A stretch of 63,629 bases of DNA. Source: Catajapyx aquilonaris (lineage: Eukaryota). The stretch covers positions 1 to 63,629 of the forward strand of contig JYFJ02002068.1 in NCBI GenBank assembly GCA_000934665.2, written 5' to 3'. A program made the position numbers and the translations under genes. The notes below the pieces were generated by a model that was given only the letters and a program-made list of their open reading frames with translations, had not been told where the DNA came from and searched no databases. Shown here piece after piece: positions 4,576 to 52,209 of this stretch; position 1 is the first letter of the stretch; every line of letters starts with the position of its first letter.

Positions 4576-6047
4576 GTAAGGACACTATTTGTCCCGAGGC
4601 CAATAATAATTACGCAGCTAGACTTGCCTGTCAAGCGGTTGCCGCCGAGGGCCACGCCACAAAGACTTTGACTCGTTTCCGAACCGCGCCAAACTCATTA
4701 CCCTGCAGAAACTGCACTTAGTTTACCCAATTACCTCGATCGTTTTTTTGAGCCATCCTGTACTATAACACGTAAAAAGATTGTCGCACTGTGTCCGCGA
4801 CTTTTAGTTTACCCCTCCTGCCGCAAGGGTCGGATACGACGGTGTTTGGAGGAGGCCAATCCAAACAGCGTCGTCCGGCAACGCCCCTTGCGGCAGGAGT
4901 GTAAACAAAAAGTCGCGGACTCAGTGAGACAATCTTTTTGTGTGTTATAGTACCTACCTTTTTTTTTTGGACCTGACAGTACTTTGGAGGCATAATTTGG
5001 TGCGAGCAGACCGTGAATGGGTGGAAGGGGAGAGAGAGAGAGAGAAAAAAAGAGAGAGAATGGGAGGGTGAGTGAGCAGCTGTCGAGCTGGGGTAAAATT
5101 CCGAGTAGGTTGCGTCGACAGGCGACGATGAAGACCTGAGTGAATAGCCGCAAGCTATTCCATGCGGGCTCCAATCGTTCTCTAGGGTACAGGCACCATC
5201 ACTATACCCAGGTACTGCACCCCCCTCGAAATCATATAGCACCAGCGTATATAGGATAACCGCTGCAACTTTTGTGCTCGCGGGACTCCAATCCGCGAAA
5301 TAGGTCACTTCTCTCCGAGGTAGAAATGGAGAGAAGTTCCCCATCTCTCCGTGGGTTTTTGGAGCCAGACTTTCCCTGGATATTTTATGAAACTCAACTC
5401 CGCCTGGATTTTACTCCAAGCGCTTGGGCTGTTTCCCAACTTCTATCGCACTGTTTTTCTGTGTATATAAAGCGGGTTTTTTTTTTGGTTGTTGTTGATC
5501 GAAACGATGGTCAACCCATGGTTGTGTATAGTGTGGCGACCGTTTTTTTAGCTCCTCCTAACCCAAAAGCATCCTCTTAACAGGCTTATTCTATTAAGGG
5601 GAGTGCTGGCAGCGTCACTGAGACCAGGCCTAGTTATGTGTGTAGTTCCTTCCCATTTGCACAGTTTGCTCTAACTTGCTTAGAGTTGACGCCGGCCTGG
5701 TTGGCCTCTCTCGTCAAGGATTGCGGGACCCCGAAAGCGAAACAACCAACTTGCATCAAAGGTTGCCTCGTCACGGCAGGCAGGAACTATAGAACAAGCG
5801 GCGGGCTAAGGGTTAAAAGGAGAATCATGCACCCGTTTTGCCTCCGTCTCTCCCCCCACTTTGCATCGCAATCGCTTTATCTACATCCTTAATAAGCTTA
5901 CGTGCACCTGGTTTTTAGCCCCAGGCTGTAGCCATTTTGGCCCAGCTGCGGCCTGGACCCAACAGATGGCAGGGACGCATCTGGAACAGGCCTGCCATCT
6001 ACCGCTTATTTTTTTAAAAAAAACAACACGGTGACGACAATCCCTTA

Positions 6048-6301
6048 CTAGTGGCAGACTTGTTACAAAATTTTAGCAACATTTGGACGTATAGTTGGCG
6101 CATACTCTGCACACTACTGCCACTCTCAGGGAGAAAGTAGTACTACATGCACGTTGGTGATGAGTCACCGCGCGGACAAATCCCACCAGCATCACCCGCC
6201 TCCATTAAAGTGGGTCCCATACTCTCTGAACGGAAACTATGACTACATATGAGTCAACACGGACATATAAGCAGACGGAGAGAACAAGGGGATTAGTACG
6301 A
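6048..6301 (-). mobile_element. Non-autonomous Helitron-like element, copy A (both termini present)
   Basis: On the - strand it begins A|TCGTACTAATCCCC and ends CTAG|T (AT target, no TSD). An imperfect hairpin TGTTGCTAAAATTTTGTAACA lies 8 nt before the CTAG. The core AGTAGTACTACATGCACGTTGGTGATGAGTCAC recurs in other copies in the window. Confidence 0.7.
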
Positions 6302-13538: not shown

Positions 13539-13640
13539 TCTTTCTCCTAATAGGCTTATTCTCTCCGTCTGATGTTTGTCCGACCTGACAGTATCGCTAT
13601 CTCTCACACGGTGGCAGGAGTGGGCAGAGTGCGCCATCTA
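13539..13640 (+). mobile_element. Degenerate, internally deleted Helitron-like family fragment (copy E)
   Basis: A|TC...CTAATAGGCTTATTCTCTCCGTCTG matches the 5' end of copies A and D. GTGGCAGGAGTGGGCAGAGTGCGCCATCTA matches their interior, in the opposite orientation. Confidence 0.5.
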
Positions 13641-19600: not shown

Positions 19601-20680
19601 GAAACAAGTTTGGAAATGCGATATATGCGAAAAGTGCCCAAAAAAAGTGCACAAAAAGACATCGAACAGGTTTCCACGCTTGGACAGACACTAACCCTCG
19701 AAACATCCCTTAATTTTTGCTGCCGTTTTTCGCCAAAAGAGTGCTGCGGTGTTGCTGCGCTTTTGTGGGGGAAATTCGAGAGGGTTTGGGACGTATTATG
19801 CTCTGGAATAATATATATTGAGAGAGAAAAAAAAAAAAGTTGGTGAAAAACGCGCGCGATGGCAATTGTGGGACTGGGGGCTTGAATGAAGTTTGAATCG
19901 ACTGGTGGGGCTAGCTTTGAAACCCCCGCTGTGGTGAATGGCGCAGGCACCGAATTTTTTTTTAGGTGTGCTTGTATTTCCACCATTCTCTCTCCCCCCC
20001 AAAAAAGGGGGAAAAATTGCGACTCGGTCCTAGTTTTTTTTTCGCGAAAAGCGGGGTCCTGCACATCACCCGCACTCACGCACACATTCAAGCACACCGA
20101 GGCCTAAAAATGTACGGTTTCGAAATCATAAAACATATCCCCCCTTTTTTTTCTCGGGGAAGCAAGGTTTTCTTTCTCGCCTACTCTTGCATGAGCCGAA
20201 CTTACTTCACAACCCAGTTTTAAAAAAAACGCAGTACCTATAATTACATGTGGTTTGAGCAGCACTGGAAATATTCCGCCGCCTTACAAAAAAAAATCCC
20301 AAGCTCAAAACACCATGTGCAGGGACCTATACGTTAAATGGATGAATAAATTATGGAGGACATTTTTATATTCCGTTTTTGTGTGTCAAAGTAGCAAAAA
20401 TTTAAAGGTCGCCACATTTTCTGCCTATTCCGATTCGTTTAAAAACTAGTACTTCCGTCAGATGTGAGAGGACCGTAACTCAATATTCACTTCCCTTGCG
20501 GCGAGAAAAGAAAGCAAGTGTTACCGAAAGCATCCAAAAGGTGGCGTTGGGGGAAGGGGGGAAAAGAAACGGCAGCCCAACTCCACCTGTTGGGTGCTTT
20601 TGGTACCACTGCTTTTCTTTCGCCGCAAGGGGAAGTTGACATTGAGTTACGGTCTTCTCATATCTGACGGCATTGTTTTG

Positions 20681-20935
20681 CTTGGACGTCGTGCGATAGG
20701 CCCCTACCAGTTGGCGCATAGGCTCTGCCCCTCTCTGCACACTACTGCCGTGCTTAGGAGGGAAATAGTAGTACATGCACGTTGGTGATGAGTCACCGCG
20801 CGGACAAAGCCCACCAGGGTGCTATAATCCCGCCTACATTGAAGTGGGCGATATATATTGTTGAACGGGGAAAGTGAACACTATGGTAACTACCACCTAC
20901 CTGTTTATGACCGGACAAACTTGTGGACATAGATA
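20681..20935 (-). mobile_element. Helitron-like family, copy B (termini not recognisable; empty MITE target site)
   Basis: Shares CCAGTTGGCGCATAGGC, ACATGCACGTTGGTGATGAGTCACCGCGCGGACAAA and CTATGGTAACTAC with the other copies. Boundaries are approximate. Confidence 0.75.
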
Positions 20936-25517: not shown

Positions 25518-25796
25518 TCATACCCCGTTATCAGCCTACCGGCTCTTTAGTGGGGAAGTTTTGTTTTGCCTGGAACGCTTTGCTTTCATTTTACTGCGCT
25601 TTTTGGGATAGGATAGGGACGGAAGGAAGCGGCTATGGCCTATTAATTACGGAAGCAACTCCGGAATTTTCCTGGAAGGACGACCGTGGGAAACCACAGA
25701 AAACCACGGTCAGAGTTGCCGGCCCCGGGATTTGATCCCAGGACCTCCCGATTAGCAGTCGGACACCATATCCCCTACTCCAAACTGGCCTAGGTA
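25430..25796 (-). mobile_element. Full-length tRNA-derived SINE
   Basis: The - strand head has A-box-like TGGAGTAGGGG and B-box-like GGATCAAATCC. The body GTGGTTTTCTGTGGTTTCCC...GGCCATAGCCGCTTCCTTCC resembles arthropod SINE bodies as I recall them. The tail is (TTA)n(TTG)n. A 14-bp TSD CCATTTGAAAGTAA lies at 25416-25429 and 25797-25810. Confidence 0.9.
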
Positions 25797-45048: not shown

Positions 45049-46640
45049 TCCGGCCAACTCTTTCCCCATCCATGTTTTGGGGGTGCCAATGATAGGAGAA
45101 TCGATGCGGAAGGCTCTCGGAATAATTCATCGGCCATCGACTGTTTAATTAACTTTGATGATGAGGTGGAAGGGGGGTCCCTGCAGCAATTGCGTGTGGC
45201 ACGGGTGGGTGGGTGGTGGTGGTGGATTCATCCGACGCAACTCGCCTTGAATTATGGAGAAGCCCGTAGTCATCTAACCGGCTGGGAGTAACAATGTGCA
45301 TTTTTCCAACGATGTACACGATTTTTGCAACAACGATTTTGCTCTAATTAAAGCCTGCGGGGTTAGGCAACCCTGCGTTCAAACCCTCTCGAAAGAAAAT
45401 GATGCTGGAGGCTGAGATGAATCTAGGGCCAATCGATCCAGCCAGGCCAGTCATCGATTCCTGGGGCCAGCCGATCGTTCCTCACTCGGCCTTTCTCTAA
45501 TTTGCTCCAGATGGCGACTTGAGAGCGAGAAAATTCCCGGACCAACCCAAGAAGAAGAAGAAAAAAAGGGAGTTGGAAAAGAGAGAAAAGGGGTGATGGA
45601 GGTCGGGAGAGATTGAGAGGAAAAAGAGGTTGGTCCAGGCCAATACTGTAGGCACGTACAGTCTCTTGCAAAACTATTCAATCACCCTTACACCTGAAAC
45701 AGTAATAAAGGGGACAGCCCAAGGATGGCTTTAATAACAACCCGGATTTTTTCTCCCCCCCCTCCTGCGCGGTATTTACTATGACCTGGCTGATATTGGT
45801 TTCTGGTTTCATACGATGCAAAGATCAAACCCATAAAGGGGAAAAAAAGAGAGGGGGGGGGGTCGGGATATTGGGAGGCTGAGGATAAAGATGAATGCGA
45901 AATTAATTCAGATGAAAATCCACATGTTGCCGCTTGGCCTGCTTATGCTTTCATTATTATGGAAAAGGTCAATTCCCAAAATGTCAGCACTCTAGAGATT
46001 TTTTAAATTTTTTTCCCCACGAGTTATTATTATATGTAGCAAGCCTTGCTGCAATTTCGTGCACATACTAGCAACGAAGCTGTGTAATTACGGGACAACA
46101 ATGTGGGCGACTACAGGGTGTTCACTGTTGTTCGTTTGGTTATAGTATTTACCTATGTCGTGGCCGGTGTCGAATTTATAGCAGGGTCGTTTATTGTGTC
46201 GCAAAGTGGATGATCCACATAGCCTGCCAGGAAGTGATTGGCCGGATAAACAAGGTTCTCTCTCTCTCTTTTTTTTTTGCTCCCGAGGGGGTGGCCATTT
46301 GAGTCCGGACAGATAAGGGGGCAGATACGAGTGTATTTGGCCTGTGCCTAACATGAAAGGGGGTGACACAGCCTATAATTACTGGTCGTTAGCTGGAAAC
46401 GCTTTCCGCACTCTTTTTTTCCCCCCATTTGCCCCCGTTTTTGTGTGTGTGCAGTGTGTGTGTGCCTCCAGAAATTTATTAGACCCTGTTCCGCTAAATA
46501 AGTGGAAGTGACAGCCAATAGTCATGGAAGGAATCTCAACAGGTAATCAAAAAAGTGAATTATGTATCGGCCATTGCATCACTATGGGGGCGATAATTAA
46601 GTGCGATGCGCCCGCATGTTCAACTTTGCCTGTGCCACTA

Positions 46641-46838
46641 TTATGCGATTCACGAGTCCTGGCCTGTTAGGCTCCTCCCCCGTCCTCCGCCCTCTGAAGG
46701 CGAGGTTGCCACGTCCGCCATGGCCTCACACGCCTGCCAGGAGGATGGGGGAGAGCACTTGGCAGCAGTGGATCGCATTGGGGGGGACAACCAGGCCTGG
46801 AAATACGACGAACCACCTATCCCTTGTTGAGACCGAAC
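46641..46838 (-). mobile_element. Truncated copy of the 312-bp MITE (one TIR), inverted relative to the copy at 49662
   Basis: Near-identical reverse complement of about 49778-49973. Preceded by GCCAC-TA, the same left flank as the intact copy. Confidence 0.9.
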
Positions 46839-47030
46839 GCTCTCCCTTTGCACAATCCTGCCACTCTCAGGGAGAAAGTAGTACTACATGCACGTTGGTG
46901 ATGAGTCACTGCGCTGGCAAACCTCACCAGGGCGTCACTTGAACCCCGTTCAACAATTAGAGGACAGAAGTAAAAGCAATGGTAACTACTACCTACAGGC
47001 GATGAGTCAACTTGTTGGACTCACACATAT
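46839..47030 (-). mobile_element. Helitron-like family, copy C (abuts the truncated MITE)
   Basis: CCACTCTCAGGGAGAAAGTAGTACTACATGCACGTTGGTGATGAGTCAC is identical to copy A. ATGGTAACTAC and ATGAGTCAAC follow downstream. Confidence 0.8.
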
Positions 47031-49589
47031 CAATTCTGCACATATATTTTTTAAATGAGCGCAACCGAGTGCGCAACACAGTTCGCGCAAATTGCTTCAG
47101 GGGGTAACAATATGGCCGATTTTTTGCGATGTTGCCAAGTGGAACTAATATTAAGAGGCCCCCATAGAAGTAACTGTGGCAACGTTGTTGTCGGTTTCGC
47201 TCGTTTAAAAAAAAGGGGCATCATCTGAGAGTGTGTTGATAGCCGAGTGTGTCTTATTATTTCGAAATTTCTTTCGACACTTGCCCAATTTTCTTTCGGC
47301 GGTTCTTCTTTTTTCTAAAGGCCTGATCCGAACCCTAGGGGGAATTAATTAAGGAGCGCCGCATTGTTGGGTGGGGAACGCGCTCCAAATTATCTCTCTC
47401 TGGGAGGAGACCGGATCAGGCGATACATAATGATCAACCCTCTCTCCTTTTTTTATAGTATTTATTATTCCGGAGAACGATGATAGGCCCTGCGAGTCTA
47501 ATCCGGCCTTCAAAATTTTTTTGGTGGGGGGGATGATTTGCAGCGACCAACTTGAGCAGCTTACTCGGATGAATTGTTGCGTGGTTTTGCCTTCAGGTGG
47601 AAGGCCCCAGGTGTGGTCTGGGAACCGATGAGGAGGCCATTTTGTGTCCCCTTTTAGCCGCGACTCTTCTCCCTGGTATAAATCAGAGAGCCCCCAAACG
47701 CGGCGGAGTGGTAATTAACCGCGTTGTAAATCTTCTGCTCGATTATGAGCCTGATGAATGGGCAGGTGATAAATATATATATACAAAAAAAGAGGCCAGG
47801 TACAACACGAGCTTTAAGTGAGATGTCTCTCGAACAGCACTGTGTTGATATTTAGTGCGTGTGGTTTTCCCTGGGCTAATTTGTGTGCCGGATGAGCTTG
47901 TCGTTGGGTGGGGGGTCCACCATGCCTCTTTCTCTGCGTCTGGGATGCTGGGGGACCAAACCCCACCCAATCAGGCGATGGAGGTTCCAAAGTAGGTGAT
48001 AAGTACCCCTCTCACGCCGGGGTCCAGTGTTTGCAGCTTTCTCAAGAGTGTTGTTGGTCGTCGTGTTGGATTGGTGGCTACGACACGCTGAAAGATCACC
48101 CTGGAGGGAGAGAGAACGCACTTCGCAGCATGTTGATCAGAATAATAAACATCAGTGGCACACGATAATAAATAATTTTGTCCCAAAAAAATGACATTCG
48201 AAGGTATGTCTGTGGCAACAGCATTTTTGTTAGTTCTGGCTGGTTTGGTTGTAGGCTGCTGCCCCAGTAGATCACGTCCGCAGAAGAGAAGATTAGCTTT
48301 GTGCTGGTCAGCAGAAAACGAGGTGGAGGGGGGGTGGAGAAACTGGAGTTGTCTGAAGGTAGGGGGGAGTTATAGCAATAAATTCCGATTGCATCAGGCC
48401 TTCTGGAAAGGGCAGCCAGTTTTAGCCGGAATCCAGAGAGATGGTTTTTGGGGGGGCTGGATTTCCGGGACATTGGGAGGGGGTGAGAGCAGGAGAAAAA
48501 AAAACTTTTTCCCACAGAATCTCCAGGGAACATACGTGCGACTGGTCTATTATATTCCTCCGAGGGATTAATTTGTGCCACGAAAATTGGTACATTTTTT
48601 GTGCTGTACGTACTGCCTCGAAAGGGAGGCATGCACGTGAAGGCTGCAGTGCCCAGCAATCTTGCTTTTCGGGCGCACTGAGTTGTACATATTCGGTCCG
48701 TTGCGGTTCAAGGGTTAAATCAAATGGACAACCCCTTATCTTGAGATCCGCACGCATGTAACGTAGAATTTTAATTGAAAAGGCAGCACGCATGAAAAGC
48801 GTCCAATTGATATGCGAGAGTCGGAATATACATTTTTTTTCTCCATCAGTTGGTCGGTTTGGAGCAAGCAGCATCCGCGAGCCAGGAAACCATCTTTATG
48901 AGCAAAAATCTCCCCCACTTCCCAAGCCATGTTTTGTTGTGGTCTGCCAGTTTGGGGGGGATTGGCCCTTCTTCAAACACGGGCCAGCCAGCCTCTGCCT
49001 TTTGAAAAGTGCTGTTTCTAAAACGGAGCAACACCAAGGTTTAATAAATTCTCAGGCCTTTTGTGGCCGGAATGACAGTGCAGTCGGGCATGCATTGCCA
49101 GACTCGAAATGTGCTCCGCGGGATGCAAAATTCCACCATTCCCCCCTCCTCTCCACCACCACCACCACTCGACTAGTGCCTGGCCAACTTGCTTGCTCCA
49201 AAGGGAGGCGACAGAAAAAAAAAGAGAATATATGGGGGGAAAAAAAGACGGCCTGCATTTTGGGGGGGGGGAGAAAAAAACACCCAACACCACATGGGAG
49301 TTCCTGCAACTCAGTAGGGACAGGAAGAATTTTTGAAACGTATTTTTTGGCCAATTTACAGCTTGCCACCAAAAAAAAAAAAGAAGTGGTCACACCACAA
49401 CCTGTTTTGCATACAGGTCATGTTTTGCGAATTTGTTTTCGCACCTGGCCATATCCTGTGACATGTTTTTCAATCCGTTTGTCGGCAGAGTATTTTTGTT
49501 GATAACGCGGCATCCGATATTGGCCATTATATTTTTGCGAAATGTGCCACTCAAATTTTATAACCACAATTTAAGTGTTTATGTGTAAA

Positions 49590-50181
49590 CTAGTAGAGGA
49601 CTCGTTGCCAAAACTGGCCCACCCCCTCACTTGGATGTGTATAGTATACGATAGGCCACTATTATGCGATTCACGAGTCCTGGCCTGTTAGGCTCCACCC
49701 ACCTCCCAACGTCAGCGGCGGAAGAAATCAGGCCTGGAATGCTCGTGATTCTCGCGAGTAGGAGCCATTGGTGCGGGGTTCGGTCTCAACAAGGGATATG
49801 TGGTTCGTCGTATTTCCAGGCCTGGTTGTCCCCACCAATGCGATCCACTGCTGCCAAGTGCTCCCCCATCCTCCTGGCAGGCGTGTGAGGCCATGGCGGA
49901 CGTGGCAACCTCGCCTTCAGAGGGCGGAGGACGGGGGAGGAGCCTAACAGGCCAGGACTCGTGAATCGCATAATACCAGTTGGCGCATAGGCACTACTGC
50001 CGCTCTCAGGGAGAAGGTAGTACTACATGCACGTTGATGATGAGTCAATGTGCGGACAAGGTCCATTGAAGTGGGTCCCACCCTCTCTGACCGCTACATG
50101 GCCTCTAATAAGGGAAAGTGAAAACTATGGTAACTACGGACATATAAGCAGACAGACAGAATAAGGGGATTAGTAGTATGA
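49590..50181 (-). mobile_element. Helitron-like family, copy D, carrying a nested MITE
   Basis: The - strand starts TCATACTACTAATCCCCTTATTCTGTCTGTCTG and ends CTAG|T at 49590. The family core lies at about 49976-50175. Confidence 0.75.
49662..49973 (+). mobile_element. 312-bp MITE with 35-bp perfect TIRs and TA target-site duplication
   Basis: TIR TTATGCGATTCACGAGTCCTGGCCTGTTAGGCTCC at 49662-49696 and its reverse complement at 49939-49973. TA at 49660-49661 and 49974-49975. The paralogous empty site at 20695-20723 has a single TA. Strand is arbitrary. Confidence 0.92.
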
Positions 50182-52209
50182 GGTGATAGAAGAGCAAGTC
50201 CTTGTGCGACAACCCCGGTAATGATCCGTCGGAGTAATTACATTACCAATGCGAACACCCTCTGGCATCATGGACCTGTGTGTCCTTTTGGGTCGTTCTT
50301 CCAGATGAACTGCCTTTGGGGTCCGATCCTTGCCAAAGTTTCCCCGGTAGATGGACCGTGAAGCTTTCCATAAGGACACGTGCTGGACTCTTCTTCTCCT
50401 TATTACACTGTACAAGGAGGTTATACTTGCATCACTCTGCAGCAAGCTGTAATAATAATAATCATCATCCTTTGAAGCTGGCTGCTCGGTAACCGCACTC
50501 GGCTGGCGTTAATATTGCAATCGAGGGATTGGCTCGGAAAGTTCTGCCGCCTCATTGCGGTGGACGGTGAGCCTATAGGTTTGCACAATTTAACTTCCTA
50601 TAGTAAATACACCCTGGCGCAGTATAGAGCGAAAAACCGTCCCTGCCAATTTCTTCTTTTTAAAAAAAAGGCCCGTTTAGCCAAAAAATGACCAGCCAGG
50701 ATGCGTACCAAGTATGTATATATAGACGGTTTGCTTATATCCCGAGGCGTGTACTTTACATGCATCGAGGCAATTTTTGTCGGGCGTAATGCACTTTTAG
50801 GATGAAACACGGAGTCTGCGGGGAAAGAAGAATGGTGGGTGGGGGGTTTTTTTTTGGAGGTGGGTGGGAGGGGGTATGGAGAAGCAAGCAGCACTTGCCT
50901 TTCGAGTGGTGCCTGGGCCTAAACTAAACCCCGGCCGCCTCTCTCTGTATCCGGGTAACCGCAGCGCTCTCAGTGTGCTTCTCCATTTAATTACAATTTC
51001 GTGTTCGCGGAGGGGGCATATATACTCTGCCTAGTGGGTGGAGGGGGGATGTGGGGTGGAGGAAAAGCCATTCTTGCGATAAGGCAAATGCGCGGATTCT
51101 GATCGGGGGAGGCTGGAGGGAGATTAAGTATCCATTAGGGGAATGCGACGTCTTACAGGCAAAGCGATCAAGGACATCATTCGCATCGATACTTTGAGAC
51201 TGGGGAAGTTTCCAGGACAAATTCAACGGACTTGTTGCCTCTAGTTGCATCAACATCTCACAGGGCTCGGGCCAAGAGCCGAAGGCGCGCAAAGGGGACC
51301 GAAGGCCCACCGCCGAGCACAGCGAGTCGGTTGATGTAAGCCGCCAAACTTGTCAAAATTGGATTGGTCGCATCGAGGCCTTTTTTCCCCCCCGCACCAT
51401 CGTCTTCTTCTTTTCCGATCCGATGAGTTCCCCTTGAGTTACAGACGACAAGAGGAATTGGTCGGCGTGAAAATTCCAGGGTGTACATCACTTTGCCATT
51501 AGCTCCTTCGGTTTGCTTGCCGATGCGATCAGTTTTTTGGGGAAGGGTCCGAAGAATCTTTTCCCCCAACCCTCTCTTGGGCGTCTTGCTTGGTGCATCT
51601 GCTCCAATAGGATTGGGAAGCAACCGGATTCCGCGGATGTGTGTCCGGCCGCTTTTGCCTAATGTCCCAAGACGCAGCCTGTCCGCTCAAATCTGCCCTG
51701 AGAACCTGGCCCGGATTAATCAGATGGAGGGGGGTAGAAAGCACAGGAGTTGGTTTGTGTATCCGACTTGTCACCGCCCATTCTTGTCACTGCAGATATC
51801 TCGACGGGAAATTGTGATTTTGCTAGTTGTAGGGCCACTGTGTGTGCAGGCAAGCAAGAGTGATTCTGGGCCATTAGACACTGGCAGCAGCGTTGCACCA
51901 GGTAGTAATGTCGGCCGCAAAAATCTGTCGACGAAGAGAGAAGCGAGCGTTGGTGGCGCAAAAAGCTCGTTTTCCTCCCCACTTCTCTCTCTCACTGGGA
52001 GGCCCCCCCCTGGTGCTTGTCCGTGTGTGAATGGGCGATGGCCATTCCGCTCCGAAGATGGCCCTGGCCCCAATCCGCCAGCACCACCACTTCACGCCCG
52101 GATGATGCAGAAAACACACCAATTGTCTTTTTTCCCCTTTCGCCCCCAAAAAGACTAATTAATCCAACGCCCTTTAAGCCTCATCACATTGGGCTATTCG
52201 GCTGATCAC

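Follow-up and report, generated by a model that had tools for sequence, protein, structure and literature searches.

A small non-coding transposable element occupies two old and diverged copies of a repeat, 3 kb apart and in opposite directions, in the genome of the arthropod Catajapyx aquilonaris: the explanation that we favour, with a probability of roughly 0.55, is that it arrived there by two integrations, most likely through a local hop into a favoured word. The sequence examined is contig JYFJ02002068.1 of assembly GCA_000934665.2, positions 1-63,629, and this whole stretch is called the window below. It holds four copies of the host repeat, labelled A to D: copies C and D are filled by the element, and copies A and B are without it.

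The full element lies in host D, at 49662..49973 on the plus strand. It is 312 base pairs (bp) long, has no coding capacity, and carries at its two extremities a 35-base terminal inverted repeat, at 49662..49696 (plus strand) and 49939..49973 (minus strand), with 0 mismatches. The order of the segments in D is GATAGGCCAC (49650-49659), TA (49660-49661), the element, TA (49974-49975) and CCAGTTGGCGCATAGGC (49976-49992), and copy B has, at 20695-20723, the uninterrupted site GATAGGCCCC-TA-CCAGTTGGCGCATAGGC. The left TA of D corresponds to the single TA of this paralogous empty site, at 20705-20706; the right TA is read from the sequence, and a duplication of TA is the sole parsing of D that reproduces the empty site of B. 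The 17-mer to the right of the TA occurs in the window at 20707 and 49976 only. A first-pass annotation of this DNA had described D as a filled site with a TA on each side, and B as its empty counterpart, and both the strings and their coordinates are as it claimed. The window contains three exact occurrences of the 35-base end (46641, plus; 49662, plus; 49939, minus), against none in 100 shuffles. If the TA is included, the inverted repeat of the D element extends over 47 nucleotides with a match of 94%, and the predicted fold of the whole element is a long hairpin of -88.3 kcal/mol (z -8.69). A degenerate internal copy of the element end is also seen at about 49742-49751.

The second copy of the element, in host C, is truncated and inverted with respect to the copy in D. 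It lies at 46641..46838 on the minus strand, keeps one end and 198 bp, and lacks about 116 bp and the other end. Immediately to its left is GCCAC-TA (46634..46640), the sole left-flank match to D; after position 46838, the host repeat resumes 15 bases beyond the TA position of B. What is missing from C, all on one side, amounts to about 133 bp: the 116 bp or so of the element, the second TA and 15 bp of the repeat. The structure of C is confirmed to be the one annotated earlier, namely GCCAC-TA, then the other end of the element, then a deletion running into the host. Positions 46639-46838 align in reverse to 49975-49778, with 98.0% identity over 200 columns: over the 198 bp retained in C, the two elements are set apart by 2 substitutions and a single 2-bp indel. 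A 2-bp gap at 49860 and a T at 49799 are peculiar to the D element. A sensitive BLAST search with the element yields no further copy in the window, and the window contains no element ends beyond the three given above.

The hosts of these two copies are much more diverged than the copies themselves. In the 84-column core common to the four host repeats, C and D are identical at 63 of 83 columns, or 76%: these 20 mismatches in 83 columns are to be compared with 2 substitutions in 196 for the element (Fisher p 7e-10). If a shorter BLAST segment of the hosts is used, with 7 mismatches in 63 columns, the contrast with the element still gives p 9e-4. Other core identities are higher, 87% for A-C and 85% for A-B. 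Hosts C and D are several indels apart, and the informative sites give no C-D grouping: the two filled hosts, which a single ancestral insertion would place in one clade, are not the closest pair among the four copies. The comparison thus bears out the earlier observation of few differences between the elements and many between their hosts, and it supports the view that the C and D elements are far younger than the split of the repeats in which they lie.

Four read runs, X1 to X4, bear on the kinship of the two elements. They come from a single sample, possibly the source of the assembly, and were used in the form of Logan contigs, which we take to be assembled from 31-letter words; these contigs end within the 35-base ends, and also drop rare variants, so that the stretches of D's element interior that no contig reproduces exactly carry no information. 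At place 49895, the C and D elements both carry GCGGAC once, and most of the contig depth has GCGGAC doubled (617.8 of 638.7, 433 of 1031.4, 388.7 of 388.7 and 564.9 of 564.9 in runs X1 to X4). The single GCGGAC is thus a minority state common to C and D, which fits one of them arising from the other nearby.

The element of C is probably at the same TA of the host repeat as the element of D, to judge from the flanking sequence. On the right side of C, the host site matches to within 15 bases, in the correct orientation. On the left, the five bases GCCAC are all that matches, and the identity of the two sites is for that reason probable, not proven.

Several points weigh against two integrations at one site. 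Beyond the five bases that match the repeat to the left of C's TA, the 80 bases on that side are not significantly similar to the left parts of A, B and D (shuffle p 0.15 to 0.88); the rest of the left flank of C being so unlike the host, one has to postulate either a further rearrangement or a host end that varies. The support that the reads give to the left junction of C is indirect, since it comes through the left-flank contig of D. The integration of a whole element in reverse and the inversion of its interior are indistinguishable by sequence, because the two ends are identical. The single GCGGAC could be ancestral, and not a sign of sisterhood. The depths of the junction contigs do not show other family members in the same site. 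Finally, only two events are observed.

Some of these points can be qualified. The left part of the host is variable even in the other copies: A is without about 18 bases that are present in B, and D has about 10 extra bases. Farther upstream, A (6047-6070) and D (49589-49612) have a stretch of 24 bases in common (p 0.038). An inverted host flank to the left of C was also considered; it produced one weak match, with p 0.05 among 8 tests, and was rejected as not significant. As for the reads, 49684 is the last position of the left-flank contig of D in each of the four runs. The base that precedes GCCAC-TA and the element end is T in C and G in D, and a second such locus with a different preceding base would, if the words are of 31 letters, make the assembly graph branch where the contig stops. 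The stop at 49684 is therefore indirect support, in the reads, for the left junction of C.

The history that we propose would be the following. A young non-coding cut-and-paste element, making TA duplications and bearing 35-base inverted ends, would have integrated twice, in separate events; both times, the word centred on TA that it entered would have been CCAC-TA-CCAGTTGG, in two old and diverged copies, 3 kb apart, of an abundant short repeat. One copy of the element would most likely descend from the other through a hop over a short distance, with repair or replication preserving the donor. If orientation is free at integration, the opposite directions of C and D would follow. The C copy would later have lost its 133 bp or so on one side, a pattern expected from a failed excision or a break there.

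Such a history asks for more than proximity. The window counts 3207 TA sites, of which 915 lie at most 10 kb from D and 289 at most 3.5 kb, and only 3 or 4 of all these are the host site. Fewer than one in a few hundred hops would reach the homologous TA at random, even over a very short range, so that either target choice or a homology-driven process is needed. The words that adjoin the TA in the host sites are CCAC or CCCC-TA on the left and TA-CCAGTTGGCGC on the right. The motif CCMCTACCAG, with at most one mismatch, occurs 7 times where 6.4 occurrences are expected, which is uninformative on its own. A preference of the element for this site would rest on the two events.

The homology-driven process would be a copying of the element between D and C, in either direction, through repair or gene conversion; recombination between the 35-base ends, or template switching from one to the other, would then have inverted the interior of the copy, perhaps in the event that caused the deletion. 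The copies are suitably placed, 3 kb apart and on the same strand; they have in common GCCAC-TA and the minority indel state; the C copy is rearranged, and the element folds as a strong hairpin. However, hosts that are 76% alike, with several indels, are on general grounds a poor substrate for homologous copying, for which such an identity is low, and the flank of C matches that of D over 5 bases only. Moreover, homologous copying keeps orientation, so that an inversion is also required: this makes two rare steps where one integration suffices, and we hold the scenario to be improbable. A little less improbable, and still unlikely, is an integration of the C element at an unrelated TA beside repeat C, followed by a deletion that fused the interior of the element to the repeat; GCCAC would then be due to chance or to a preference for a half-site, and there would still be two integrations. 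The 80 bases to the left of C, with their five matching bases and no likeness to the left parts of A, B and D, are what this predicts. But a match of 5 bases beside the TA has a probability of about 1 in 1000 by chance, the repeat takes up again, correctly oriented, no more than 15 bases beyond where the TA is expected, and the dissimilarity loses weight when the left part of the host varies even among A, B and D.

The two remaining explanations are less probable still. A single ancestral insertion, followed by the duplication of the filled copy and by an inversion of the interior, would account for the same apparent site and for the closeness of the copies; with flanks at 76%, elements at about 99% and several host indels that differ between C and D, the later duplication of one filled ancestral copy is very unlikely. 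An assembly artefact, in which a contig ending in a repeat was joined to another repeat, is given the smallest chance of all. Both of the joined partners in C are indeed repeats, and the direct check in the reads covered D, not the junctions of C. Yet no homology in common exists at the junction between element and host that could have misled an assembler, the runs contain 82-87% of the sampled words of 46400-50400, and the stop of D's left-flank contig at 49684 in the four runs is what a second GCCAC-TA-end locus predicts.

Two integrations thus stand as the simplest reading of a young element in old and diverged hosts. This was also the proposal of the first-pass annotation, with the difference that the landing of C at the same site is here probable only. 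Of the alternatives that it had listed, inversion between the terminal repeats after copying and gene conversion are now less likely; a local hop, which it had set against two insertions, is no rival to them, being the likeliest form that they would take.

What kind of enzyme could have mobilised the element? The TA duplication points to one of the Tc1/mariner-pogo kind, as far as the sequence allows a class to be proposed. The features of miniature inverted-repeat transposable elements (MITEs) of that type are found here: a TA duplication, ends that are perfect over 35 of 35 bases, a length of 312 bp and no open reading frame. The tip of the element, TTATGCG, is unlike the CAG-type start that we take to be that of many Tc1/mariner members. 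A Pfam search at E 0.01 or better gave no match in the 26 longest of the 91 open reading frames of at least 110 amino acids, and no transposase partner of the element turned up in the window.

Other superfamilies were examined through their target duplications. Those of the PHIS group (PIF/Harbinger-ISL2EU-Spy), in the portion of PMC4482050 that treats them, are TWA, AT within A|AT|T, ANT, CWG, TNA or none. An ISL2EU element would have duplicated AT, and under this parsing the empty site would be longer than that of B by two bases. For PIF/Harbinger, with its 3-bp TWA, no direct 3-bp repeat flanks the ends of the element in any register, and neither the TNA nor the NuwaII parsing reproduces the empty site of B. 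This group of cut-and-paste elements may have in common with the present one a choice of target that, according to the same portion of PMC4482050, reaches beyond the duplicated bases; the present site fits TA only.

The pair of elements is a previously known kind of event. The Stowaway-like MITEs of the Tc1/mariner-pogo type are likewise small and non-coding, with long inverted ends and a strict TA duplication; they differ from the element described here in their tip and in the flanks of their targets, which here are not AT-rich. Dada transposons, whose duplication is presumably of a different length from the TA of this element, also have a multicopy target. What an excerpt of PMC3706591 describes for Dada is, however, a strict specificity for multicopy small-RNA genes, over many copies, where we have two events and a target that is another transposon. 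Closer to our case are the nested MITEs of plants, for which a section of the review PMC5172404, relating Jiang and Wessler (2001), describes independent insertions into other small repeats and, for some families, favoured targets. These are plant examples, mostly of a MITE within a MITE, whereas here two events only are seen, in an arthropod, with a Helitron-like target. For Sleeping Beauty and related elements, PMC7827188 describes both integration at TA and local hopping, the latter being presented as general among cut-and-paste transposons. A short-range jump into a favoured landing sequence would fit this ordinary kind of event. As it is seen in the window, the case is a clean textbook nested insertion: the empty site is preserved in a paralogue, the element is young and its hosts old, and the deletion affects one side only. 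It is of use for annotation, and not surprising.

A preference for this site, if real, would be of wider interest. It would mean that a TA-type element chooses a long specific word within another transposon family, a natural sequence-directed integration in a superfamily that is usually seen as needing just TA, and it would help to explain how elements of this sort spread with little harm to genes. One may speculate further that an abundant Helitron-like repeat has, in its 3' part, a word of 10-20 bases that a putative transposase recognises and uses as a safe place to land; we find this doubtful, though less so than any of the rival histories weighed above. If it were true, the genome of this arthropod would contain several pairs in which one transposon targets another, the element and its host among them.

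The target TA sits between a direct repeat formed by GCGATAGGC and GCGCATAGGC, in B (20690-20723) as well as in D (49645-49992). This direct repeat and the tip of the element have 6-base words in common, TGCGAT and CGCATA, a likeness noticed post hoc that may be due to chance. With such words around the TA, in the arrangement GCGATAGGC...TA...GCGCATAGGC, the enzyme could be drawn to an end-like sequence.

The abundance of the element in the reads was estimated by dividing the summed contig depth by the depth of the unique left flank, a rough ratio that is not to be taken for a copy number. By this measure the ends stand at 236-499, the left subterminal 48 bases at 100-182, the interior at 11-65 and the host core at 765-1197. 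The contrast between the ends and left subterminal part (49662-49739), at 100-499, and the interior (49764-49931), at 11-65, points to other elements with the same ends and a different interior. One interior contig of 111 nucleotides, with a depth of 586 compared with 29 for the unique flank, differs from D by the 6-base insertion only, and suggests that the element family was recently active. The contig of D's right junction (49949-50046), which has no differences, has 1.2-1.4 times the unique depth in the runs: this exact junction is essentially single-copy. The left flank of D is at 2.8-6.1 times the unique depth. No loose contig end at the element boundary is found among those listed, and a search of public metagenome, prokaryote-genome and viral contig collections for the first 22 bases of the end gives no match.

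We now turn to the host repeat. A profile search of the window with nhmmer finds its four copies, all at E 2e-45 or better and all on the minus strand. Copy A, without the element, covers 6048..6301 (E 2.1e-63), and its site region is altered, with TATAGTTGGCGC in place of the TACCAGTTGGCGC of B; at 6091-6096, it has TATAGTTGG where B has TACCAGTTGG, in which no excision footprint can be recognised. Copy B, whose site is empty, covers 20678..20920 (match at 20708-20920, E 5.1e-53). The remainder of copy C covers 46839..47009 (match at 46846-47009, E 2.2e-45). Copy D is split by the element into a left part, 49590..49661, with a CTAG end on the minus strand and the 24-base match to A, and a right part, 49976..50181 (E 5.2e-62), with a TC end on the minus strand at 50181. 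Two weak matches to the host profile at 13542-13640 (minus strand; E 0.031 and 4.3) are possibly a decayed fifth copy.

The first-pass annotation called these hosts Helitron-like, a label that is plausible from their termini and not established. A canonical Helitron has a 5' TC and a 3' CTRR end, inserts between A and T, and has a hairpin shortly before its 3' end. Read on the minus strand, A is A|TC...CTAG|T and D is C|TC...CTAG|T, and the target TA lies about 70 bases from the CTAG end. In the reads, contigs with loose ends behind 50181 number 20-24 per run, and their next base is mostly T, that is, A on the minus strand, which fits Helitron ends. On the other side, no recognisable Helitron termini are found in B and C, so that TC...CTAG is seen in two of the four copies, and the 3' hairpin does not appear: the predicted folds of the 55-nucleotide 3' regions, in D as in A, are no more stable than those of shuffled sequence (z -1.36 and +0.44). 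The HINE / DINE-1 class was also tried, for which a passage of PMC4067079 gives subterminal inverted repeats, a 3' palindrome and T-rich insertion sites; it was rejected, as there is no consistent subterminal inverted pair near the ends of A or B.

Read contigs also reveal variation among host copies. Two segments that many other host copies possess are missing from D: one of about 17 bases before 49992, which shows as a loose end there in 51-56 contigs per run, and one of 38 letters at 50059/50062. A 23-base word of the host core is absent from the public metagenome contig collection, and no tRNA is found in the host copies. Rfam gives no family at gathering score anywhere in the window.

Near copy B, at 20455-20670, lies an imperfect palindrome of 220 bp, 75% self-complementary, which ends 35 bases to the left of the empty TA and is possibly one more insertion, of the foldback or MITE-like sort, at this end of the host repeat. 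The sole tRNA gene of the window is a tRNA-Ser (GCT), at 25717-25789 on the minus strand.

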